Of a stretch of 64,000 nucleotides of DNA, positions 5,706-45,436 are shown piece after piece. Numbering within the stretch: position 1 is the stretch's first letter; every line of letters starts with the position of its first letter. Below the pieces are notes generated by a model. The model saw nothing but the letters and a program-made list of their open reading frames with translations, was not told where the DNA came from and did no database searches. The position numbers were made by a program, and so were the translations under genes. Source of the stretch: Patescibacteria group bacterium (GTDB lineage: Bacteria > Patescibacteriota > Patescibacteriia > CAIXNZ01); NCBI GenBank assembly GCA_041651155.1, contig JBAZJU010000002.1, positions 21,467 through 85,466 on the forward strand, in the 5' to 3' direction.

Positions 5706-5819
5706 GTCTTTATTTTAACAAAAAATATGCCTTTTTAAAAGCAGAAAAAAGTGATAGAATGAAGATGTTACAAATATACAAATCAAATACAAATTATTAC
5801 AAATATTAATAAGGGTATT

Positions 5820-6263
5820 ATGACAAATAAAGTGATTTATCCAGAATTATCTTATGAAATAGTGGGTGTTTTATTTGATGTTTATAATGAACTGGGTTAT
5901 GGTTACCAAGAAAAATATTATGACAGTGCTGTGGCAAAGGCCTTAGATTTGAAGCATATCAGATTTAAGCGGCAAGTGCCTTTTGATGTAAAATATAAAG
6001 ACAATAAAATTGGTAAAGGAATACTTGATTTTTTAATTGAAGATAAAATCGTATTAGAATTAAAAATCGGAAAATATTTTACTAAACAAAGTTTTAATCA
6101 GGTAAAAGGCTATCTTAAATCCACTAATAAAAAATTGGCAATCATGGCTATTTTTACTCCTAAAGGTGTTAGGTTTATTAGAATCTTAAATGAAAATAAT
6201 AAAATTAGTAAAAATGAAACAGAAATAAACCTTAATAAAGTTAGAGAATTATTCAAATATTAA
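5820..6263 (+). CDS. GxxExxY (PDDEXK_3) family protein
   Basis: N-terminus LSYEIVGVLFDVYNELGYGYQEKYY matches the GxxExxY signature. Confidence 0.7.
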   Translation: MTNKVIYPELSYEIVGVLFDVYNELGYGYQEKYYDSAVAKALDLKHIRFKRQVPFDVKYKDNKIGKGILDFLIEDKIVLELKIGKYFTKQSFNQVKGYLKSTNKKLAIMAIFTPKGVRFIRILNENNKISKNETEINLNKVRELFKY

Positions 6264-6303
6264 TTTGTAAATATTCGTCATAATATTTGCATATTTGTAT
6301 CAT

Positions 6304-9075: not shown

Positions 9076-9112
9076 TAGAGGTTCGGCCTCCAATTTGGAG
9101 GCCGAACCTCTA
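9076..9112. repeat. REP-like perfect palindrome (copy 1)
   Basis: tagaggttcggcctccaatttggaggccgaacctcta, 7 nt after the polA stop; second copy at 42252-42284. Confidence 0.7.
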
Positions 9113-10816: not shown

Positions 10817-10995
10817 TTTACTACCTCCTTAAATTGTTTTCAAAAAAACTTTATGCGCGGGAAAGGCACCTTTGCGCCCTCCCGCACACTATTGAAACCT
10901 CCAGATTTCAATAACTCTAATCTTAGCATATTTTGGAGGTTTTGTCAAGACTTACGGAAATTGCTGATTGTGCTAAAATAAAGCTACCGCTGAAA

Positions 10996-11092
10996 TAAGA
11001 AATAAGTAATATGTAATACGGAAAGGAATATAAATTATATTTAAATAATCTTCCCATCCGTATTTCTTATTACCTATTACGTATTACTGCAT
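10996..11092. repeat. palindromic AT-rich element (GTAATAYGTAATA arms), copy upstream of holA
   Basis: gtaatatgtaatacggaaaggaata...ccgtatttcttattacctattacgtattac. Related copies at 31181-31285 and flanking 43201-43572. Confidence 0.7.
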
Positions 11093-13291: not shown

Positions 13292-13446
13292 AGATGAATT
13301 CTGAATTATGAATTATGAACTATGAAATGAAATACAGATTACAGATAGTTACAGATATGCTGATTTAGTGATTTGTAAATCTGTATATATCTGTAATCTG
13401 TAGTATTAAAGAAATGGTATCAGATTATTATTATGAAGTCAAGGAT

Positions 13447-17655: not shown

Positions 17656-17894
17656 ATACTTATGAAGGCGGATTGAAGAGGTCGCAGATTCAAGCCCTGC
17701 AATGGCCATACGAAGGCAGGTTCGTAAGGTCACTGGTTCAAACCCAGTATTGCCCACCTTTGTCCTACGAAGCTTTAGACGGTCGGTCTTCGGCCTTTAC
17801 AGACGGAAGTCGGCTACTGAGCCGACGAATGTCGTTAAGCACAGCCCACAAAACAACATTATTACTTATTACTAATTACTTATTACTAATTTAC

Positions 17895-27118: not shown

Positions 27119-27212
27119 AACTAAACGACTTTACAACTTAACAACCTTACAACTTAACAACATTCCTAAATAATTTCATAATTCATATTTCATAATTCAT
27201 AATTTTACAACT

Positions 27213-27677: not shown

Positions 27678-27847
27678 AGCCAAAAAGCCACTAGCCATGA
27701 GGTATTTGCTATAGGTATTAAAAAATTCTTAGCACTAATGCCAAATGGCACTATGGCCTAATGGCTTTCAAATTTTATATTTCATAATTTCTGCCAAAGG
27801 CGGATCAGCCTCTGGCTGACATCACTCATAATTCATAATTCCACACT

Positions 27848-31180: not shown

Positions 31181-31285
31181 AATAAGTAATAAGTAACATG
31201 TAATATGTAATACGGAAAGGAATATTAATTATAAATAAATAAAAATACCAATCCTTATTACCTATTACATATTTCCTATTCCCAA
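31181..31285. repeat. palindromic AT-rich element, copy in the recA 5' region
   Basis: aagtaataagtaacatgtaatatgtaatacggaaaggaata...ccaatccttattacctattacatatttcc. The right arm matches the reverse complement of 43170-43204 over a 33-nt exact run. Confidence 0.75.
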
Positions 31286-34866: not shown

Positions 34867-34940
34867 AAGCGGGTGACCGGAATCGAACCGGCATCTCGAC
34901 CTTGGAAGGGTCGCATACTAACCATTGTACTACACCCGCC
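34867..34940 (-). tRNA. tRNA-Gly(TCC)
   Basis: Minus-strand GGCGGGT..anticodon arm CGACC-CTTCCAA-GGTCG..T-arm GCCGG-TTCGATT-CCGGT. Confidence 0.85.
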
Positions 34941-34983
34941 CAGATAAAAGTTTGTGCATTTAAAGCTTCAACCTTCTTTTATC

Positions 34984-35216
34984 TCAGCTAGAGAAAAAAT
35001 GGTTTAAACGAATCATCCATAAACTTTTATCTGGGCACGCAGTTATTTTATTTTCTTTTCCCGATTTATTTAAATATTCGGAAAGCATTGTCCTCAAAGT
35101 CGTTTTACCCTTGGTTGTCTTAAAATACTTTTCTCGTCTCAAGGCATCTGATTTATTTAAATATGCTTCGTAAAAAATCAAATCTAACGGCCGCCTATAT
35201 TTAGTTGAGGGACATC
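34984..35216 (-). pseudogene. N-terminally truncated GIY-YIG nuclease-family (UPF0213/YhbQ-like) remnant
   Basis: STKYRRPLDLIFYEAYLNKSDALRREKYFKTTKGK parallels the C-terminal half of ORF 36017..36283; in-frame stops remove the GIY half. Confidence 0.5.
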
Positions 35217-35420
35217 ACCATCATGATGTCTTTTTGTTCTTTCCGTGATGTTAGCGGTAAATCCAATATAAAAATTTTTATCTTTTTGAGATAACAAAAT
35301 GTATGTATAGTAAAACATATTCTGGGGTTAAGGCCATGCACCAGGCGGTGCACGACCATAAACCATTTACCTTACAGTAATGACGGACTCAAGACCCGCC
35401 ATAAACCGCATGGTTTATGG

Positions 35421-35639: not shown

Positions 35640-35894
35640 TGCCTGGGGGCAGAATCGAACTGCCAACCTGCCTGCCGGCAGGCAGGCGCAAGGCTACGAA
35701 CCACTCACTTCGTTCGGGTGCATGGTAAATTTTTCAGCCTGCCCTGCACTAAAAATTTACTATTGCCGAAGGGCAGAATCGAACTGCCAACGCAAGGATT
35801 TTCAGTCCTTCGCTCTACCACTGAGCTACTTCGGCTCATTTGTATAATATTTTTTAGTGCAGGGTCCTTCGCTCTACCACTGAGCTACCCAGGC
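35640..35894 (-). pseudogene. disrupted tRNA-Phe-like gene split by nested insertions (outer gene)
   Basis: 5' half GCCTGGGTAGCTCAGTGGTAGAGCGAAGGAC at 35894-35864 and 3' part CCTTGCG[CCTGCCTGCCGGCAGGCAGG]TTGGCAGTTCGATTCTGCCCCCAGGCA at 35694-35641, interrupted by an intact tRNA-Phe flanked by 15-bp inverted repeats. Confidence 0.55.
35764..35835 (-). tRNA. tRNA-Phe(GAA), intact, nested inside the disrupted copy
   Basis: GCCGAAG-TA-GCTCAGTGGTAGAGC-G-AAGGA-CTGAAAA-TCCTT-GCGTT-GGCAG-TTCGATT-CTGCC-CTTCGGC-A. Confidence 0.85.
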
Positions 35895-36016
35895 CCGATA
35901 AAAGTCTGCGTATTTAATGGATAAACAATTATTTAACCGCTGATCAATTTAAAATGTTGAACCAAATAATACCTAAACTTTTATCGGGCCAGAGGCCTTT
36001 ATATTATATTTAGCCT

Positions 36017-36283
36017 CTACTTTTTTATAATATTTTGCAAAAAATTCTTTAATCTTTTTTTGAGATATCTTTTCCCCTGACCGCTTTTTAAAAACTTCTC
36101 ACGTTTTATTGCATCATATTTATTTACACAACATTCATAATAAATTAAACAAATTGGCAATCTATTTCTAGTTGAAGGTACTTTTCCTGCCAAATGTTCC
36201 TTGTGTCGCTTTTTTAAATCCGAAGTATACCCGGTATAAAAATTTAAATCTTTTTTGCTTAAATAGACATAAACAAAATACAT
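36017..36283 (-). CDS. GIY-YIG nuclease family protein (UPF0213/YhbQ-like, 88 aa)
   Basis: YFVYVYL...FYTGYTSDLKKRHKEH (GIY-YIG half), conserved R/E, and YDAIKREKFLK; no SD; starts 27 nt after tRNA-Ile. Confidence 0.7.
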   Translation of the reverse strand: MYFVYVYLSKKDLNFYTGYTSDLKKRHKEHLAGKVPSTRNRLPICLIYYECCVNKYDAIKREKFLKSGQGKRYLKKRLKNFLQNIIKK

Positions 36284-36310: not shown

Positions 36311-36384
36311 TGGACGTAGATGGACTTGAACCATCGACCTCGTCATTATCAGTGACGCGCTCTAACCAACTGAGCTATACGTCC
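36311..36384 (-). tRNA. tRNA-Ile(GAT)
   Basis: GGACGTA-TA-GCTCAGTTGGTTAGAGC-G-CGTCA-CTGATAA-TGACG-AGGTC-GATGG-TTCAAGT-CCATC-TACGTCC-A, immediately 3' of the 16S. Confidence 0.85.
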
Positions 36385-36688
36385 CGATAAAAGTCTGCGT
36401 ATTTTATCATTATATGCGGACTTTATCTACAATAAACAAACTACATTTTTTCTAAATTTTACATAAACTTTTATCGGGACACGTCCTAAAAAAATTTTTA
36501 GCTTGATAAACCAATTTTATCAAAAAAGACTGGCTCAATCAAGATCTAAAAGTTGATATTAACTAAGCCAGTCTTTTTAAATTGAGCCTTAACGCCTAAA
36601 AAGTGATAGAATCGTCGTCTGCCTCAAGGTTGAGGCTCGACCGATAGAGTAAAGGGCCTTTACGGTCATTTTACTCAAATACTCCCTA

Positions 36689-38190
<1,502 letters not shown>

Positions 38191-38584
38191 ATGTGATATT
38201 AAAGTATATCACGGACTTATTGTAGAAGTTTTAAACTTCAAATGATTTGACGATTCTATCACTTTTTAGTTGTCAAAGCTTCGCCTTGAATTTCTAATTC
38301 TTGATTTTTGTAAATCTCGAGCGAAGTCCCGAGTCCCGCTACGCGGGACGAGGGATCCATTCCTTCTTTTTTTAAAGAAAGAAAAAAACAGGGAAATCCA
38401 TTGTCTTTTTAAATTATCCCGCTCCGCGGGATTTTTAATAGATTGAATTTGCCTGTTTTTTTCTCCTCCCTTCGACTCGCTCCGCTCGCTCAGGGCAAAG
38501 CCCTTGCCAATATTCTTGCGACCAAGGATATCATCGAAAAAATAAATTTTATTAAGAGTAATTGAAAATTTTAAAGGTTATTTT

Positions 38585-38620: not shown

Positions 38621-39575
38621 GTCAAGGGGTTGTTATGGTTCAATACCTTTGCACCACCCTGTGGTAAGCTTGGGTATATGCCATACACTATGAATCCAAA
38701 ATTACCGCGTCTGCGCATGCAGACTGCGAAGCTCGTATTAAAACAAGGTTGGAGTACGCGACAAGCTGCCAGATATACAGGATTTGACCACAGCACTATT
38801 GTCCGTTGGGTTAAGAAAGCAAGGTTAAGTAACAAACGGATTATTCCCACTGAAAGTTCACGCCCTAATCATCATCCCTTAGCCATTTCACACAAAATTG
38901 TCAGTGCAATTTTAGGGCATCGGGACAAGTATCATCGGTGTGCTGAAGTTATCCATTATCAATTAAACAAAGACGGTATTGTTGTAAGTTTGTCTTCTGT
39001 TAAAAGAACGCTAAAACGTTATGGCCTAATTTACCCGAGCAAATGGAAAAAGTGGCATGTTTATCCGCCTCGTCCAATAGCTGAAAAACCTGGGGTTTTA
39101 GTTGAAATTGACTCAATGCAGGAAGGTTTGCCTGCAGAACATTTACACCTCTATGCCTTAATTGATACCTGTTCTCGCTGGGGATTTGCCAAGCCGGTAA
39201 AAATAGTTAATTCCTGGCAAAGCGCCAAGTTCTTTCTAGAGGCTAAGGATAAAGCATTATTTACTTTCCGTATGATCCAATCAGACAATGGAAGTGAATT
39301 CGCCAAGTGGTTTAACAAACAACTGTTGGCTTCGGGAATTGAACATCGCCATTCTCGGGTAAGAAGACCGACGGACAACGGGCACGTTGAAAGATTTATT
39401 CGGACCATACAGCAAGAGTGTTTAGCCCGAAATCCTAGAAGTTTTAAAGCTTGGCAAAAAGCTATTCCTGAATTTATTAATTATTACAATACCGAGCGTC
39501 CACACATGGGGATTAACATGAAAACACCCCTTGAAGTGGTGCGAAGCTATTGACCAGAAAACAGGGGTTTTTTGG
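38610..39575 (+). mobile_element. IS481-family insertion sequence (approximate ends)
   Basis: Transposase ORF with HTH and rve DDE core. Imperfect terminal inverted repeats TGTTATGGTTCAATACC (left) and GCTATTGACCAGAAAACA (right), the latter overlapping the stop codon. Confidence 0.7.
38678..39553 (+). CDS. IS481-family DDE transposase
   Basis: N-terminal HTH (STRQAARYTGFDHSTIVRW) and integrase core with D..D..E (VEIDSM...QSDNGSEF...ERFIRT). Confidence 0.8.
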   Translation: MPYTMNPKLPRLRMQTAKLVLKQGWSTRQAARYTGFDHSTIVRWVKKARLSNKRIIPTESSRPNHHPLAISHKIVSAILGHRDKYHRCAEVIHYQLNKDGIVVSLSSVKRTLKRYGLIYPSKWKKWHVYPPRPIAEKPGVLVEIDSMQEGLPAEHLHLYALIDTCSRWGFAKPVKIVNSWQSAKFFLEAKDKALFTFRMIQSDNGSEFAKWFNKQLLASGIEHRHSRVRRPTDNGHVERFIRTIQQECLARNPRSFKAWQKAIPEFINYYNTERPHMGINMKTPLEVVRSY

Positions 39576-39685
39576 GAAAGGGTAAAATGGGCAAAAAGGG
39601 AAAGAGGGGTAAGAAGGGATTATTAAATTTAAACATTTATAATTCAAAATCCACTTGGCCAATGCCTAATGGCTAATGGCTTTTT

Positions 39686-40441
39686 TTAAGGATTAAATCT
39701 ATCCCAAACCATATCATGAATTGAATTTAAACTTTCAGCAACTTCCTTATTTTTAATCAAAACCGCAAAAGGATTTTCTCTGGTCGTGTAGATCATAACC
39801 ATATCATCAAGCACTGCAAAAGAAGCTTTTATTGGATAAATATTGGGTGAAACCACAATAGATTTTCTTAATTCTTCTGCATCTTTTTTTAATACTTCTT
39901 TCATCGTTGGGGAATCGGGATTACCGGCAACAACCATTCTTCCTTTAATATTTTTTTGCACTCGTTTATTAATATAAGCTGACATCTGCGCTTTGCCATG
40001 TTGAGCCATAGTAGTTTCAACGTTTTCAAATGTTTTTCCGAGCTTTGTCTTAGCATTTTCCAACCAAATATCAGCGGCAATTTGGACACCTTCAATTCCT
40101 GAATAATATCTGATATCCAGCTTTTTTTCTGGCGCGCTGATATTTTTGGATAAATCAGAAATTATTTCATCCAAAGTAATATTTTTTCTGTCTAAAATAT
40201 AATGTAAATCTTTGGGACTAAGCGCCTGGTAATATTTACGTTTGCCAATTTTTATTATTGAAAGAAATCCCTGGCTTACTAAATTCTGAATCGGCTGGTA
40301 AGCGGCTGTTCGGGGTAATTTGGCTGTTTTGGCTAAATCAGATAAATTAGCTGACTCAAAATTCAAAGCCGCCAAATAGATTCTGGCCTCATAAGTATGA
40401 AGGTTGAAGACCATTTTTAATTGCTCAATTTGTTTTTCCAT
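39686..40441 (-). CDS. TrmB-family transcriptional regulator
   Basis: N-terminal wHTH YEARIYLAALNFESANLSDLAKTAKLPRTAAYQPIQNLVSQGFL plus a C-terminal sensor-like domain. Confidence 0.65.
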   Translation of the reverse strand: MEKQIEQLKMVFNLHTYEARIYLAALNFESANLSDLAKTAKLPRTAAYQPIQNLVSQGFLSIIKIGKRKYYQALSPKDLHYILDRKNITLDEIISDLSKNISAPEKKLDIRYYSGIEGVQIAADIWLENAKTKLGKTFENVETTMAQHGKAQMSAYINKRVQKNIKGRMVVAGNPDSPTMKEVLKKDAEELRKSIVVSPNIYPIKASFAVLDDMVMIYTTRENPFAVLIKNKEVAESLNSIHDMVWDRFNP

Positions 40442-40623
40442 AATTTTATTATAACAAATGACGCATATTTCGTCAAATTATTATAAATTAAATTGGCTAT
40501 AATTAGCTAAAATATTAATTATTACCAATATTTTTGTCAATAAAATTTGCAATAAATTAAGATGCTGATATATTAAAGCAAAAAGAAAGTTCTGAACCTT
40601 TAAAATTAAAAGGAGGTAAAAAA

Positions 40624-41727
40624 ATGAAAAAGGAACTTTGCCATACTAGTAGCAAACATTTAGAGGTAGTGGGTCCCTTTGCGGGCTCATTCGCATTTCT
40701 TGACAGGAAAGTGATGCAAAGTAATAATGCACCTTTTGGTGGCTCATTTTCCTGGCTAAACAGGAATCTTTGTGCGGAAAAAGCTAAAAAGCCCAAGACA
40801 ATTATTTCTTTGGCAATCAATGACATCTGCAATCTCGGCTGTCCGCACTGTATTGTAAAAAATTTCGCAACCCAACCTGAAAATGAATTGGTTTTAAACC
40901 AACGGCTCCGTGAACGCTTGAAAGAAATGGGCTGTCCTGGCACGCCACCTGATTTCATCAGCTTTGCCGGCAAAGAGCCGACCGAGACTCCTGAAAAACT
41001 GGTTTGGCTGGCAGAAGCAGTCAGACAATTTCCAGAAACAAAAACAATCTTGATGACTCATGCCTACAAGCTGACTCCGGAACTTCAGCATCAGCTTACT
41101 GGGCTGATTGACTATCTGGATCCATCCTTGGATGGCATTGGGAATGTAATTAAACCGGCTTTTGCTAATGGCAAAGAAACTTCTGCCTGGCAACACATCA
41201 AGTACGCGGTCAAAAACAAGCAATTCAAAAAAGTCGGAATTATCGTGACGCTTATGCCCGATACTTACAAGCGATTGCCCGAGCTGCTTAATCTTTTTGC
41301 CAAAGAATTCGGCAATGATGATAATGTCTCGGCCACAATCTGGTTTTACATTGGGCAAGCAGATGATCCTTTACTTCTCAACAAAAAGCAATTCCTGGAA
41401 GCAATTTCAATCGCGGACAATCATCCATGGCCCAATATCCAAATTGCTCTGCCTGGCCATTATATGTCTTACCTGCCTGACCTTGTCCAACAATTCAATA
41501 TTGATCAGGTAAGCCAAAAATTTTGTTCTCAAACGGGTATTGAATCTTACCTGATTAAAGACAAAATCTTAATTCTACCCACAAATCTCAATCTTTTAAG
41601 GATTGAATTTGATGGTAGGGCATACGCAGGTTGTGGACATTATCTCAACTTAGACGAAGCTCCACTGGGAAATATTGCCCAGGATACAATCGCAGAATTG
41701 TTTTCTCGCCTACCTAATTCAAACTAA
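40624..41727 (+). CDS. radical SAM protein with repeat-containing N-terminal extension
   Basis: CNLGCPHC (CxxxCxxC) with SD aaaaggaggtaaaaaaATG; N-terminus carries two copies of a PFxGSFxxLxR(K/N) motif; C-terminal Cys-rich region. Confidence 0.7.
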   Translation: MKKELCHTSSKHLEVVGPFAGSFAFLDRKVMQSNNAPFGGSFSWLNRNLCAEKAKKPKTIISLAINDICNLGCPHCIVKNFATQPENELVLNQRLRERLKEMGCPGTPPDFISFAGKEPTETPEKLVWLAEAVRQFPETKTILMTHAYKLTPELQHQLTGLIDYLDPSLDGIGNVIKPAFANGKETSAWQHIKYAVKNKQFKKVGIIVTLMPDTYKRLPELLNLFAKEFGNDDNVSATIWFYIGQADDPLLLNKKQFLEAISIADNHPWPNIQIALPGHYMSYLPDLVQQFNIDQVSQKFCSQTGIESYLIKDKILILPTNLNLLRIEFDGRAYAGCGHYLNLDEAPLGNIAQDTIAELFSRLPNSN

Positions 41728-41739
41728 AAAACTTTCTTG

Positions 41740-41775
41740 CAAAAACAAAAGCCCTGAACAATGTTCGGGGCTTTT
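41740..41775 (+). terminator. rho-independent terminator
   Basis: aaaagccctgaacaatgttcggggctttttt. Confidence 0.7.
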
Positions 41776-41982
41776 TTAATATAATTATTTTAAGTCCTAA
41801 TGCATTTTAACTACTCTATTAAATATTTCTCCATTTCTTTTTTCTTTTTCATAAATAAAGCGGTTTCTTCTGCTATTTTTTTATAATCCCGAACTTCGTC
41901 TAATATAATTTGTTTACTGCAAAGATTATTTTCTTTTATCCCTAAATAAGCGGGGTAACTGCACCATGGGTAATCAGCGGCA

Positions 41983-42498
41983 TTATCGGTTATTCCGTGA
42001 ATCTGGGCATTGGTGTTTTACATAGACGGAAAGCCAAAGCAAATGGTCAAAAGAAGTTATTTGAGTCGCTTTAAATTTACCTTGGAATAACACTCCGTTT
42101 CGATTATTTTTAGTATTGAAATACATAGTATAAGATGTCCCTAAACGCTGCATGAATTTTATAATACCGTTTTCTGCTAATTGCCTTACTATAAAATGAT
42201 AATGATTGGGATTTAAACAGTAACAGATAAATTCTACCAGGGGGTCGCTCAAAGGTTCGGCCTCCAAATTGGAGGCCGAACCTTGATCGCCTTGGTCGCC
42301 TACCTTAACTATTTCATTTATCGCTCTTTCCCTCAAAAACTTCCGATAAAACCCACCATCAACTTTGTTAGTATTGAATTCTGTCATGCTTTTTAAGAAT
42401 CTTAAATAATCGCCTTCGTCTAAAAAAACATCGCGTTTATCAACACCGCGATTATAGATATGGTAATATTCGTTATTATTGAAAATTATTTTTCGCAT
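41983..42498 (-). CDS. RAYT/IS200-like Y1 (HuH) transposase carrying an in-frame REP insertion
   Basis: YHIYNRG, HuH motif HYHFIV, GVLFQGKF and Tyr in SVYVKHQ; segment GDQGDQGSASNLEAEPLS is encoded by the palindrome at 42252-42284. Confidence 0.65.
   Translation of the reverse strand: MRKIIFNNNEYYHIYNRGVDKRDVFLDEGDYLRFLKSMTEFNTNKVDGGFYRKFLRERAINEIVKVGDQGDQGSASNLEAEPLSDPLVEFICYCLNPNHYHFIVRQLAENGIIKFMQRLGTSYTMYFNTKNNRNGVLFQGKFKATQITSFDHLLWLSVYVKHQCPDSRNNR
42252..42284. repeat. REP-like palindrome (copy 2), inside the RAYT-like gene
   Basis: aaggttcggcctccaaattggaggccgaacctt with adjacent direct repeats ccttgatcgc / cttggtcgcc. Confidence 0.7.
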
Positions 42499-42503
42499 AA
42501 ATA

Positions 42504-43166
42504 CTAAAAATGACTTTTCTTCTGTCTTTCTCTCCACTCCTTAATCTTGCCGTGATTCCCCGAAAGTAAAACCCCTGGAACTTTCCAGCTCTTAAACTTT
42601 TCCGGCTTAGTATATTGCGGATATTCTAATTCGGCTTGCCCCATTGGGGTTTCTTTGGAAAATGATTCATCTTTTGGCGATTCTAGATTACCTAAAACAC
42701 CAGGCAATAATCTGGTAATCCCATCAACCAAAACCATGGCTGGAATTTCACCGCCGGTTAAGACATAATTGCCAATAGAAATTTCTTCATCAGCCAAATG
42801 TTCAGCCACGCGATTATCAACTCCTTCGTAACGGCCGCAAATCATTATTAACTGGTCATATTTTTTCAAACGTCTCAATTCCTTTTGGGTTAAAGTTTTG
42901 CCCCGAGCAGAAAACAAAATTACCCGAACTTTCTTTTTCTTCTTTATTGACTTGAGCGCCTTATAAATCGGTTCAATTTTTAAAAGCATGCCCGCGCCTC
43001 CGCCATAGGGCGTGTCATCAACTGATTTGTATTTATTGCCCGCATACTGGCGTAAGTCAGTGATTTTAATATAAATTATTTTTTTCATTTGCGCGCGCTT
43101 AACCATGGCTGTGTTGAAATAGCTGTCAAAAATTTGGGGGAAGATGGTGATGATGTTGAAAGTCAT
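42504..43166 (-). CDS. trmD: tRNA (guanine37-N1)-methyltransferase
   Basis: TrmD-fold similarity throughout (ITIFPQ, GGGAGMLLKIEPIYKAL, YEGVDNRV). Confidence 0.9.
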   Translation of the reverse strand: MTFNIITIFPQIFDSYFNTAMVKRAQMKKIIYIKITDLRQYAGNKYKSVDDTPYGGGAGMLLKIEPIYKALKSIKKKKKVRVILFSARGKTLTQKELRRLKKYDQLIMICGRYEGVDNRVAEHLADEEISIGNYVLTGGEIPAMVLVDGITRLLPGVLGNLESPKDESFSKETPMGQAELEYPQYTKPEKFKSWKVPGVLLSGNHGKIKEWRERQKKSHF

Positions 43167-43204
43167 ATGAAATATGTAATAGGTAATAAGGATTGGTATT
43201 TCAT
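43167..43204. repeat. left arm of palindromic element flanking the four-helix-bundle gene
   Basis: gaaatatgtaataggtaataaggattggtattt, a 33-nt identical match to the reverse complement of the recA-copy right arm. Confidence 0.75.
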
Positions 43205-43572
43205 TTTTTATCCTTTGTCTGTTTGATTAAATTATTTAACTTAGCATTCAATAAATTTAATTTTTCTAAAAAATCTTGGTGATTAGATTTTTCGATAACT
43301 TTACGCTCCAGTAACAAATCATTCCAGTGCCTTGCCTCAAATAAAGATGCTCTTGCATTATAATAAAATTTAGCTTTATCTAAATAATGAAATCGGCCAT
43401 AGCCTTCTGCCACATTAGCAGCGATTGAATCTAAAGCTGTTATATATTGACGACCAAATATATAACGATTCTCTGAATTTAATTGCTCAAAATTAGCCCA
43501 ACCAATTCTAGATAATTCTCTGGCCAATTGATAAACTTCTAAATCTTCTAACTTTAAATATTCATTTCCCAT
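43201..43572 (-). CDS. four-helix-bundle protein (23S rRNA intervening-sequence protein family, TIGR02436-like)
   Basis: 123-aa helical protein, LEVYQLARELSRIGW...AANVAEGYGR family pattern. Confidence 0.75.
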   Translation of the reverse strand: MGNEYLKLEDLEVYQLARELSRIGWANFEQLNSENRYIFGRQYITALDSIAANVAEGYGRFHYLDKAKFYYNARASLFEARHWNDLLLERKVIEKSNHQDFLEKLNLLNAKLNNLIKQTKDKK

Positions 43573-43602
43573 ATTACATATTACGTATTACTTATTACCT
43601 TC
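43568..43602. repeat. right arm of palindromic element flanking the four-helix-bundle gene
   Basis: cccatattacatattacgtattacttattacc; its reverse complement matches the left arm of the recA and holA copies. Confidence 0.7.
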
Positions 43603-43660
43603 ATTATAACACAAACTCCGCGCTAAAAAACGCGGAGCTATGGTTTTTAATTCAGACGTT

Positions 43661-44419
43661 TTAGTACAATGGCTTACCAATCTTATAACTGTAAACAATT
43701 GAATCATCAAAATATAAAATTTTGCTTTGATAATCCGCGCCAGCATAAAAAGCTGCCTTGTCTGCAGTAATTGGCCTCAAGGTCAATGGAGCATCATACC
43801 TATTAACATAATATAAAGCCTGATCTGTTGCGCCTTGAACCACTTTCCCAACCAATTCTGAAATATCAGGCCTGTCTGTAAAAATAATTTTATTATTAAA
43901 CTCTTGATAATGATAAACTCGGCTAACAGCTTCAACATCTGAAATTGACAAAGCCCCATAATAATCAGTTGCTTTTATTTCTGTTTTTGTCTTCACAATA
44001 CTTTCATTGTTTGCGCAAATTGGTTTTATTCTGGCGCGATTCAGAGAATCATACCAGCCTTTGCCAAAAACTTCAGACCCTGCGCAAAAACGCGCGTCAA
44101 TTTCCGAATTTTGGGTCAAGCCATTCAGTTGAGTTGCATTGTCTGAAATTGATTCTTGGATATTTGTAATTTCTTCAGGCAAAATAAAAGGTTTATAAAA
44201 AATTAAATTAGTGGCTGGCTTTTGAAGATAACCGCTCAAAAAAGAAGGATCAGTGGGTATGTTAAAAAAATAAGTTTGTCCGGCTTCCAGGCCTTGGGCT
44301 GCACAATCCTCTTGGCAGATGTAAGCGCCATATTGGTCAACAGTTCCAGGCGATGCAAGGACAATTGCAGGAGAAAGTACCATTGATAAAATTGTAATGA
44401 TAAACAACAATCTGCGCAT
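43661..44419 (-). CDS. secreted hypothetical protein
   Basis: Signal peptide MRRLLFIITILSMVLSPAIVLA; no recognisable motif. Confidence 0.4.
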   Translation of the reverse strand: MRRLLFIITILSMVLSPAIVLASPGTVDQYGAYICQEDCAAQGLEAGQTYFFNIPTDPSFLSGYLQKPATNLIFYKPFILPEEITNIQESISDNATQLNGLTQNSEIDARFCAGSEVFGKGWYDSLNRARIKPICANNESIVKTKTEIKATDYYGALSISDVEAVSRVYHYQEFNNKIIFTDRPDISELVGKVVQGATDQALYYVNRYDAPLTLRPITADKAAFYAGADYQSKILYFDDSIVYSYKIGKPLY

Positions 44420-44551: not shown

Positions 44552-44869
44552 TTATATTTTCAGATCATCAACAACATCAGTGTCAACTTCCTGAGTGCGT
44601 CTTGGAGGTCTTGAACCCTCTGGTTCAAAAATTTTCAAATTGACACGAGCATTGTTTTTGGCACCAACAATTTTTAAAAGGGTGCGGATTGAGCGGGCAG
44701 TATTACCCTGCTTGCCAATGACATAACCCATGTCGCTTTGATTGATGTGCAGGGTCAGTAAAACGCCCATTTCATCAACAGTTCTCTCCACTTTCACATC
44801 GTCAGGGTTGCCCACGATGGATTTAACAATGAATTCAACGAATTCCTTGTCTGCAAATTTCTCAGCCAT
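44552..44869 (-). CDS. khpA: KH-domain RNA-binding protein (KhpA/YlqC-like)
   Basis: VIGKQGNTARSIRTLL GxxG KH motif; sits between rpsP and trmD as in the canonical rpsP operon. Confidence 0.7.
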   Translation of the reverse strand: MAEKFADKEFVEFIVKSIVGNPDDVKVERTVDEMGVLLTLHINQSDMGYVIGKQGNTARSIRTLLKIVGAKNNARVNLKIFEPEGSRPPRRTQEVDTDVVDDLKI

Positions 44870-45043: not shown

Positions 45044-45436
45044 TTAAGATTTTGGAGTCTCTTCCTTTGGTTCTTCTGCTTTTGCTTCAGGAGCTACTTC
45101 GGCTTTGGGAGCTGGAGCTGGGGTTGGTTCTTCTTTTTTCTTTGTTTCAGCTATTTTAACAGCGCGTCTTTTGGTAATTTTGGTGACTTTTTTCTTTTTG
45201 CCTTCAACAATTCCCTTGGTTACCAGCAAATTCCAGACAGTTTCTGATGGCTGAGCGCCTTTACTGATCCAATATTTAATCCGATCAGCTTTTAATTCAG
45301 CAACTTTGGTGCGAGGATTATAAACACCAAGATTTTCCAAATAACTGCCCCAAGGATCTTTGGTTTTTTCATTGATGATTATTCTGTAATTTGGCTGTTT
45401 GGTTTTGCCTGTGCGTGAAAATCTAATGACTAGCAT
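45044..45436 (-). CDS. rpsP: 30S ribosomal protein S16 with Lys/Pro/Ala-rich C-terminal extension
   Basis: MLVIRFSRTGKTKQPNYRIII...YNPRT..YW bS16 signature. Confidence 0.9.
   Translation of the reverse strand: MLVIRFSRTGKTKQPNYRIIINEKTKDPWGSYLENLGVYNPRTKVAELKADRIKYWISKGAQPSETVWNLLVTKGIVEGKKKKVTKITKRRAVKIAETKKKEEPTPAPAPKAEVAPEAKAEEPKEETPKS

Follow-up and report, generated by a model that had tools for sequence, protein, structure and literature searches.

In a 64-kb stretch of the metagenome-assembled genome of a Patescibacteria group bacterium (Parcubacteria group; assembly GCA_041651155.1, contig JBAZJU010000002.1; the whole stretch is called here the window), the gene for a four-helix-bundle (4HB) protein resides directly ahead of trmD and is bracketed by two inverted arrays of 7-nt repeats, named here the 5' and 3' arms. 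Arms of the same type, without the gene between them, form two hairpins in front of recA and holA. TIGR02436-type 4HB proteins were named after their occurrence within 23S rRNA intervening sequences (IVS), stem-loops that RNase III cuts out. On balance, we lean towards reading the trmD element as an IVS-type, stem-bracketed gene cassette, probably processed by RNase III, which lives in an mRNA leader and has deletion-derived empty copies.

Anatomy of the cassette and of the gene-less hairpins

The components of the cassette, the hairpins sharing its arms, and the flanking sequences are listed below. The G+C content of the window is 30-45%. Relatives used in the comparisons are labelled L003, L005, and so on.

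43570-43599, minus strand: 5' arm, four tandem GTAATAN heptamers (G-type), read from the sequence; period 7 and 4.1 copies according to Tandem Repeats Finder (TRF)
43201-43572, minus strand: cargo 4HB gene, 123 aa, PF05635 / TIGR02436 '23S rRNA IVS protein' family, from hidden Markov model matches
43167-43200, minus strand: 3' arm, AATACCAATCC followed by three NTATTAC / NTATTTC heptamers (C-type), read from the sequence
42504-43166, minus strand: trmD (ATG 43164-43166), the leader of which is the cassette; NCBIfam equivalog, 285 bits
31179-31284, no strand assigned: cargo-less hairpin filling the spacer between the stop codon of a helix-turn-helix (HTH) gene (31286) and the recA ATG (31170), from fold and arm matches
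10992-11087, no strand assigned: hairpin without cargo in the leader of holA, after a TGCTAAAAT box and before the holA ATG (11109), from fold and arm matches
43603-43613, minus strand: TGTGTTATAAT, apparently an extended -10 box, separated by 3 nt from the 5' arm downstream, read from the sequence, conserved
43614-43639, minus strand: intrinsic terminator of the upstream gene, AGCTCCGCG...CGCGGAGTT and then a T-rich tail, from the terminator scan
43661-44419, minus strand: hypothetical 252-aa protein, no Pfam match
41983-42537, minus strand: Y1_Tnp-like (IS200-type) open reading frame (ORF) beside trmD, 26 bits

In mRNA sense the 5' arm (30 nt) reads GGTAATAAGTAATACGTAATATGTAATATG, and the 3' arm (34 nt) reads AATACCAATCCTTATTACCTATTACATATTTCAT. 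The latter occupies the interval between the stop codon of 4HB and the trmD ATG, and ends 0 nt ahead of this ATG. Hexamer cores of the two arms are complementary to each other, and the stem is made of 6-bp blocks, because seventh positions mostly mismatch in this lineage. The arm duplex has a free energy of -24.0 kcal/mol, compared with -13.2 +/- 3.2 kcal/mol for shuffled arms, none of 300 shuffles falling below -24.2. In the minimum-free-energy fold of the 476-nt transcript, the arms are paired across the 4HB ORF. An earlier interpretation of this DNA, made from the sequence alone and called here the sequence-only reading, had described mutually reverse-complementary arms flanking a 372-bp 4HB ORF with its ATG inside an arm. 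The description is accurate in both respects, as the arms are inverted heptamer arrays and the ATG is contained in the last repeat of the 5' arm, at its end.

The 4HB protein is clearly a member of the PF05635 / TIGR02436 family, which it matches over its full length. It scores 75.2 bits against PF05635 (cut-off 33.8), with residues 9-113 aligned to positions 1-105 of the 106 of the profile, and 72.1 bits against TIGR02436 of NCBIfam (cut-off 24). Homologues of this family number 767 at E <= 1e-5 among the candidates scored for the 4HB query, and one of the contigs carrying the exact protein is ENA ERZ27247363 k141_2778245. Compared with five orthologues, dN/dS is 0.11-0.19 (about 0.15), so that the protein is functional and under purifying selection. 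We know of no function assigned to PF05635 / TIGR02436 proteins more than 30 years after they were first seen in Leptospira and Coxiella rRNA. A sequence search of the PDB with the 4HB protein returned zero matches. Viral contigs, searched with a 31-sequence 4HB alignment and with the GxxExxY protein described below, contained no relatives, and thus gave no sign of phage carriage of the 4HB subfamily found in the window.

The sequence-only reading had also matched the arms to palindromic elements at recA and holA, and both elements lie within a few bases of where it had put them. The right arm of the recA hairpin (31243-31279) and the cassette 3' arm (43165-43201) are 97% identical over 37 nt, and the alignment includes the 33-nt exact match that had been claimed. 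The other arm pair (31186-31218 and 43566-43598) measures 33 nt at 88% identity. The left arm of the recA hairpin is made of 5 GTAATAN units. Across loci left arms match at 88-93%, and the left halves of the holA and recA elements are 89% identical over 55 nt. The recA hairpin folds at -33.9 kcal/mol (z = -5.4), the holA hairpin at -23.1 kcal/mol in the sense (z = -4.2) and -31.4 kcal/mol in the antisense (z = -3.8) orientation. No Rfam family covers the hairpins.

Given this G+C content of 30-45% in the window, and arms in which A and T predominate, the likeness could be a chance product of low-complexity sequence, or the hairpins could be ordinary intrinsic terminators, but either explanation is scarcely credible. 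The motif GTAATANGTAATA (up to 1 mismatch) occurs 22 times in the window, against 0.49 expected occurrences and never more than 3 in any of 100 dinucleotide shuffles. Exact shared words reach 33 nt, whereas the longest in 10 shuffled windows measured 17-23 nt. Shuffling thus excluded mere AT-rich low complexity, which the sequence-only reading had named as the way in which the similarity might fail, and the arms are kept in orthologues. A role of the hairpins as terminators or attenuators was considered and rejected: the arms are AT-rich, no T-tract follows the hairpins, the terminator scan was negative at both cargo-less elements, and a separate canonical terminator is found upstream of the cassette.

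Sequences within the gene-less hairpins suggest that these are internal-deletion derivatives of the full cassette. Inside the left arm both read ACGGAAAGGAATAT, which resembles ATGGGAAATGAATAT, with which the 4HB ORF begins. In L048, the orthologue of the holA hairpin, with an intact ATG and a duplicated right arm, still reads ATGGAAAGGAATAT, close to ATGGAAAATAAATAT of the orthologues. The recA hairpin carries the AATACCAATCC segment placed after the stop codon in the cassette, and the holA copy has a diverged version of it. Common arms, ORF-start remnant and post-stop segment support the view of the recA and holA elements as cargo-less relatives. Because hairpin loops are short and AT-rich, the deletion origin is suggestive rather than proven. 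It is likely that full cassettes became empty hairpins through internal deletion, rather than that a gene was inserted into an existing hairpin. In the recA hairpin, the right arm is almost identical to the cassette 3' arm, fast-changing seventh positions included, while the left arm is nearly identical to the left arm of the holA hairpin. Such mosaic arms point to recombination or gene conversion between copies in this genome. When metagenome contigs were searched for a specific arm-plus-loop pattern, 2 of 12 matches were relevant, corresponding to the holA hairpin of L048 and to the orthologous cassette of L051.

Genes of the minus strand are arranged in the order rpsP (45044-45436), khpA (44552-44869), the gene for the 252-aa protein, the 4HB gene, trmD, and the Y1_Tnp-like ORF. 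The cassette had been assigned to an rpsP-khpA-...-trmD operon. The gene order holds, but terminator and -10-like box point to a separate 4HB-trmD promoter. The stem of the terminator is conserved in relatives, and all relatives examined have the TGTGTTATAAT box or a close variant of it. The box itself is found at the matching place in L003, L005, L010 and L040, whereas L008, L043, L044 and L045 carry the variants. The promoter scan made no call at this box, since the -35 hexamer is missing. Because both signals sit between the upstream gene and the 5' arm, 4HB and trmD probably have their own promoter, rather than relying solely on read-through from rpsP-khpA, and the 5' arm would lie at or near the 5' end of the 4HB-trmD mRNA. 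The box preceding the holA hairpin (10971-10979) reads TGGTAAAAT in the relative L048. ATG-proximal arms of the recA and holA hairpins stop 8 and 21 nt, respectively, ahead of the start codons.

In the window, the leaders of most housekeeping genes are poor in G and lack a Shine-Dalgarno sequence, and a minority features a strong AAGGAGG. The 3' end of 16S rRNA (window 36660-36700) is CCATCTCCTTTCT, not CACCTCCTT. As housekeeping leaders are of the G-poor type, the C-type arm resembles a normal leader of this organism.

According to the explanation we favour, the two arms of the 4HB-trmD transcript would come together as a stem of ~30 bp with interspersed mismatches, and the tandem repeats would let them pair in several registers across the 372-nt ORF. 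RNase III would cut the stem and release the 4HB message, and trmD would be left with a short G-poor leader lacking a Shine-Dalgarno sequence, like most housekeeping genes here. The recA and holA hairpins, as internal-deletion derivatives, may keep the same processing or leader function. Occupancy of the sites would change slowly, as arrays recombine and slip against one another. That transcription runs through both arms, that these pair in vivo and are cut by RNase III, and that expression is affected are all steps that we infer from the DNA sequence.

Arrays with period 7 are frequent in the window (12, versus 1-5 for periods 5, 6, 8 and 9). One is a C-type array which stands alone:

17859-17891, plus strand: solo array, TTATTAC x 4.7, 3 nt before the ATG of a ychF-like gene, no partner arm, from TRF

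A second heptamer family, TTCATAA / TCATAAT, is found directly before start codons at 13295-13326 (minus strand), 27175-27204 (plus strand) and 27826-27841 (plus strand), again with no partner arm. These arrays precede an rpsT-like gene, ssb, and an rpsR-like gene, and those of rpsT and ssb are 91% alike over 32 nt. A gene-less 70-nt hairpin with tandem TACAGAT arms (13333-13402; -35.2 kcal/mol, z = -8.9) sits between the rpsT-like gene and the next gene on the minus strand. Three hairpins of ~100 nt, belonging to one family (CCCGATAAAAGT...ACTTTTATCGGG), are located at 34938-35036, 35892-35990 and 36381-36480, in the tRNA cluster downstream of 16S. Two directly abut tRNA-Gly and tRNA-Ile. A GIY-YIG gene (36017-36283, minus strand) and the remnant of another (about 35068-35315) alternate with the three hairpins. 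Hairpins and arrays with a period of 8-10 nt, as those of the ATATAACCTC type, mark leaders of ribosomal protein genes (about 20500-20600 in L060; 26538-26591 and 27119-27161 in the window). Taken with the trmD site of L043 described below, they imply that repeat-armed leader hairpins are not restricted to heptamers in this clade.

A second gene of the window is bracketed by repeats. It encodes a GxxExxY / PDDEXK_3 protein (PF13366, 94 bits; 5820-6263, plus strand), and the bracketed region spans 5768-6303. TACAAAT repeats are found upstream and ATTTGTA repeats downstream, the latter ending at the polA ATG (6304). The bracket resembles the 4HB cassette, but cargo family and heptamer differ, and the polarity is reversed, the C-type arm being first.

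Arrays abutting a start codon without a partner arm, as those of the ychF-like gene, the rpsT-like gene, ssb, trmD in L044 and a DUF212 gene in L006, would be at home in a different explanation, in which arrays are primarily leader or protein-binding elements, and complementarity is secondary or serves pairing in trans. They might be initiation leaders for genes without a Shine-Dalgarno sequence, or sites for an RNA-binding factor able to read the repeats, possibly a pentameric 4HB protein. In the trans variant, the G-type arm of the 4HB mRNA would pair with C-type leaders of other genes. We regard this explanation as quite unlikely. The prevalence of G-poor leaders in the window agrees with it, as does the invariance of hexamer cores next to drifting seventh positions. 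S23p and bAvd proteins assemble into nucleic-acid-binding rings of five subunits, and the arms typically contain 3-5 units, which also speaks for such a role. The GxxExxY gene argues against it: arms of similar design, made of a different heptamer, surround a different protein, and hence the cargo protein cannot be a universal reader of the repeats.

Inheritance and turnover among relatives

4HB proteins 70-84% identical to that of the window are encoded at the same rpsP-khpA-hyp-4HB-trmD site in L003, L005, L008/L060, L010, and L040/L051/L061. All orthologues feature G(T/A)AATAN units ahead of the ATG, and NTATT(A/T)C units between the stop codon and the trmD ATG. Relatives in which the 4HB gene holds the same position without arms, the finding that the sequence-only reading had set against itself, were looked for, and none was seen. 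16S identity to the window, measured among cassette-bearing relatives for L051 and L060, is 94.7% and 90.5%, respectively. A 63-nt expansion in the 16S gene of L051 was considered as a heptamer-armed rRNA insert and rejected, as it is not heptameric.

Constraint on the arms is best seen by comparing the window with L040 (dS = 0.77). All 42 hexamer-core and all 11 inner-stem positions are identical, whereas 5 of the 6 free seventh positions differ. The probability of such identity at neutral sites is, by our own arithmetic, < 1e-10. With armed orthologues at the same site in relatives and a low dN/dS, the cassette is a long-standing resident kept by purifying selection, and did not arrive recently.

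In other relatives the trmD site has different occupants. L043 (16S identity 94.9%) has no 4HB gene at this place, and carries an unrelated hairpin of ~120 nt made of period-10 units (L043 2860-2990), preceded by a GGTAATAG remnant. A solo TGGCTAT array is found before the trmD ATG in L044. L045 hosts a different 4HB / bAvd-like gene, with GAGCT-type arms; its 138-aa product matches both PF05635 and PF22296. TrmD identity is 86-88% among genomes with other occupants, and 86-91% when genomes with the orthologous cassette are counted as well. The genome of L045 (GCA_028714455.1) carries the closest homologue of the window 4HB gene elsewhere, between iPGM and fpg, again flanked by arms (GAAATAN), and a solo TATTTC array precedes a DUF212 gene near this copy. 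Filled and empty sites could be compared in relatives also at recA, as the sequence-only reading had proposed. Window and L061 have the hairpin at one and the same site, and L060, in which the HTH-recA spacer measures 21 nt, lacks it. Cassette and hairpins thus persist for long under constraint, with sites that are occasionally gained, lost or replaced.

Turnover of this kind is what a mobile element acting at the DNA level would produce. In such a case, arrays would be the terminal inverted repeats of a small selfish cassette, and gene-less copies would be similar to MITEs (miniature inverted-repeat transposable elements). Movement would occur by array recombination or by folding of single-stranded hairpins, the 4HB protein would serve as the maintenance or mobility factor of the element itself, and RNA processing would only make insertion tolerable. 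This explanation, which is compatible with processing, is in our view unlikely. It draws on the presence and absence of the recA hairpin, on the varied occupancy of the trmD site, on the armed copy placed between iPGM and fpg in GCA_028714455.1, and on the mosaic arms and deletion-like empty copies of the window. The family is also found inside the rRNA genes of candidate phyla radiation (CPR) bacteria, where 23S_rRNA_IVP ORFs lie within rRNA insertions (PMC11270868). However, no transposase, integrase or REP-associated tyrosine transposase (RAYT; REP, repetitive extragenic palindrome) is consistently linked to the 4HB cassette at the loci of the relatives. No target-site duplication was visible at the recA site when window and L061 were compared by eye with the empty L060 site, a weak negative given the high divergence. 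Just three arm-bearing elements are found in 64 kb, and across roughly 5-10% divergence in 16S both cassette and hairpins have been passed on vertically without a change of site.

The Y1_Tnp-like ORF beside trmD was considered as a sign of a REP/RAYT link, and rejected, the ORF being absent at the locus in L003, L008, L040, L043, L044 and L045. It belongs to a block between trmD and 16S (38630-42537), which includes also an rve integrase gene, a TrmB-family gene and a radical-SAM gene. The block is probably an insertion, because 16S follows trmD within ~0.4 kb in L051, L060 and L043. A GC-rich palindrome of 31 nt, AGGTTCGGCCTCCAA(A/T)TTGGAGGCCGAACCT, occurs twice in the window, just past the polA stop codon (9079-9109) and inside the Y1_Tnp-like ORF (42253-42283). 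The two copies are 100% reverse-complementary, and may form a REP/RAYT-like pair.

Four-helix-bundle loci across bacterial phyla

A scan of one genome per species identified 31 loci encoding 4HB relatives, in about a dozen phyla. Source groups include Parcubacteria, Omnitrophota, Bdellovibrionales, Gammaproteobacteria, Saprospiraceae, Bacteroidales, Anaerolineae, Chloroflexia, Gemmatimonadota, Rhizobiales, Caulobacterales, Acidobacteriota, Cyanobacteria, and others. By eye, most loci feature lineage-specific heptamer arrays, inverted on the two flanks of the 4HB gene, with units such as GATATTN / NAATATC, GAATTGG / CCAATTC, GTACTGC / GCAGTAC, GGCAGTA / TACTGCC, or of the AGTGAAT type. In numeric tests, 32 4HB loci were compared with about 206 other ORFs of the same loci, and polarity was scored on the 30 loci with reliable ORF calls.

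The alignment score of the inverted flanks has a median of 15.25 at 4HB loci and of 7.25 at control ORFs (Mann-Whitney p = 5e-7), and 66% of the 4HB loci exceed the 95th percentile of controls. Flanks are therefore mutually complementary in two thirds of the loci, well above neighbouring genes, a result which a pure leader role of the arrays does not predict. The period-7 score is also higher than in controls, both upstream (p = 2e-4) and downstream (p = 8e-7). The order of the arms is fixed: G exceeds C in the upstream flank in 27 of 29 loci (control 99:100; p = 7e-10), and C exceeds G in the downstream flank in 26 of 30 (control 102:95; p = 2e-8). At the DNA level there is no obvious reason for a strict polarity with the G-rich arm leading, which counts against arrays being the ends of a mobile DNA cassette. 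The 4HB stop codon is followed within 200 nt by the start of a co-oriented ORF in 21 of 25 loci, usually at 33-66 nt.

In L026 and L033 (Rhizobiales) and L032 (Prolixibacteraceae), the 4HB cassette is found 50-66 nt upstream of ORFs with N-termini that look, by eye, NuoD-like (…RNFNINFGP) or SufC-like (MLTIKNLHASVEGNE). If N-terminal resemblance reflects true identity, the cassette would reside inside essential operons.

Several observations weigh against the IVS-type, RNase III-processed cassette that we favour. About one third of the 4HB loci show no clear arms, among them the single match found in a plasmid search, from Pseudanabaena. The solo arrays of the window, of L044 and of L006 lack the partner arm that a stem needs. 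Stability of the stem in this lineage is moderate (-24 kcal/mol), with a mismatch at every seventh position, and hexamer cores vary less than they would need to for pairing alone, which also fits recognition by a sequence-specific factor. No RNase III gene was identified by a motif search of the 64-kb window, a result with little bearing on the rest of the genome. When G-U pairs are allowed, the sense duplex is the more stable in 18 and the antisense duplex in 13 of 31 loci (p = 0.2). With no preference for the sense strand, selection at the RNA level is not demonstrated, and RNA- and DNA-level functions are not separated.

Comparison with known systems

ORF-carrying IVS are known in the 23S rRNA of Leptospira, and ORF-less IVS hairpins of about 100 nt exist in other bacteria, in parallel with the empty copies described here. 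The closest counterpart of the window cassette is the IVS in helix 45 of Coxiella burnetii 23S rRNA. In this element three GACAGAT heptamers in tandem, with a degenerate fourth one, come before the S23p ORF, excision is carried out by RNase III, with the 5' cut at the start of the first heptamer repeat, and the number of heptamers varies between strains (PMC4990558, Warrier et al. 2016). The two elements have in common the cargo family (PF05635 / S23p), the stem bracketing the ORF, and heptamers directly before the ATG. They differ in location, as the Coxiella element lies in an rRNA helix, and the window cassette in an mRNA leader or intercistronic spacer (trmD, with empty copies at recA and holA). 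The Coxiella S23p ORF is reportedly decaying and probably untranslated, whereas the 4HB ORF of the window is under purifying selection. Excision is demonstrated in Coxiella, while the window element is known from sequence alone. Coxiella anatomy and the arms kept in orthologues together give sequence and comparative backing to the stem-plus-cargo architecture that the sequence-only reading had proposed for a protein-coding setting. The element has the inverted repeats of an enclosing stem and the heptamers ahead of an S23p-type ORF, and is not inserted in an rRNA helix. It may be called IVS-like in working, but is not an IVS by definition, because it is not located in rRNA. The only rRNA gene in the window is a single uninterrupted 16S (36690-38191), and no 23S gene is found within the 64 kb.

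RNase III acts on heptamers also in an mRNA. In the 5' untranslated region (UTR) of Haemophilus influenzae hmw1A, a transcribed heptamer array forms a hairpin, which is cut by RNase III, and expression rises (PMC12721329, Rapun-Araiz et al. 2025). As in the window, transcribed 7-nt repeats make one arm of a long 5'-UTR hairpin. In hmw1A, however, a single arm is repetitive, the pyrimidine-rich repeat arm comes first, no cargo gene is present, and the locus encodes a phase-variable adhesin. Along these lines, arrays could be simple-sequence-repeat contingency loci, in which slippage alters heptamer number, stem length and downstream expression as a heritable rheostat. The hmw1A repeat works in this manner, together with RNase III, heptamer number varies before the Coxiella S23p ORF, and unit numbers differ between orthologous arms of the relatives of the window. 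We nonetheless hold a rheostat to be very unlikely here. Arms of 3-5 imperfect units, with differing seventh positions, are a poor substrate for frequent slippage, and the targets (trmD, recA, holA) have housekeeping roles, unlike surface or contingency genes.

Heptamer arrays without a described link to 4HB genes mark the genomes of other bacteria. Short tandemly repeated repetitive (STRR) sequences are intergenic heptamer arrays of heterocystous cyanobacteria. In Xanthomonas, GGGAATC arrays form 70-75 convergent inverted pairs (PMC4692102). In Beggiatoaceae, 169 sets of TAACTGA repeats have been counted, mostly upstream of and co-oriented with an ORF, the commonest distance from the start codon being 1 nt (PMC4679880), an arrangement that favours a leader role. 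All three feature tandem 7-nt units in intergenic, transcribed positions, as the window arrays do, though unit sequences differ. Solo arrays and 3' arms of the window end 0-3 nt before the start codon (trmD, ychF-like gene), similarly to the 1 nt common in Beggiatoaceae. The texts of the Xanthomonas and Beggiatoaceae papers were searched for 'four helix', 'S23', '23S' and 'intervening', and contain no mention of these terms.

MITEs and REP/BIME elements (BIME, bacterial interspersed mosaic element) are likewise short, palindromic and intergenic. As in this comparison, the gene-less copies of the window look like internal-deletion derivatives of a gene-carrying copy, and vary in presence between relatives. 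The recA and holA hairpins have terminal inverted repeats in common with a longer gene-carrying copy, as MITEs do. The window element differs from MITEs and REPs in low copy number, in arms which are internally repetitive heptamers, and in fixed G-first polarity. The accessory protein bAvd of diversity-generating retroelements (DGRs) has a related four-helix-bundle fold, and the L045 protein matching PF22296 belongs to this comparison. A link to DGRs was considered and rejected, as no RVT domain is found in the Pfam lists of the neighbours, and no template or variable repeats at the loci examined. By these membership tests, the element is not a MITE, a REP/RAYT system or a DGR.

A broader reading of the data is possible, which we hold only tentatively, as a single claim made of four parts. 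4HB genes, and perhaps GxxExxY genes, would be the cargo of unnamed, pan-bacterial stem-bracketed cassettes with inverted heptamer arms, the G-rich one first. The cassettes would colonise housekeeping leaders, operon spacers and rRNA helices alike, tolerated in such varied sites because RNase III removes them from the transcript. STRR sequences, Xanthomonas GGGAATC pairs and Beggiatoa TAACTGA repeats would be the remains of empty or half-deleted cassettes. Finally, a ring-forming 4HB protein would read the array, one subunit per heptamer, and control processing or spread. Were the architecture the unit of selection, this would explain how 4HB genes are placed harmlessly just before essential genes such as trmD, before genes which are nuoD- and sufC-like by N-terminal resemblance, and in rRNA. 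On the same condition, the architecture would tie 4HB genes to RNase III processing in a way testable in culturable carriers (Xanthomonas, Nostoc, Bacteroides, Rhizobium), and would offer an origin for the heptamer tandem repeats of cyanobacteria, xanthomonads and Beggiatoaceae. It would also provide an annotation signature for cassettes and gene-less hairpins, consisting of inverted period-7 arrays with G-first polarity.

In the literature, of which coverage was partial, so that a prior description is possible, nothing was found tying 4HB genes in general to inverted heptamer arrays, or to gene-less copies in mRNA leaders. IVS with an S23p ORF, the heptamers of the Coxiella IVS, heptamer arrays in several phyla and the RNase III-cut hmw hairpin are known already. 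What appears to be new is their union, in which a conserved cassette of IVS-like type resides in the mRNA leaders of housekeeping genes and has gene-less siblings, and in which a cross-phylum rule holds of inverted heptamers with the G-rich arm first.

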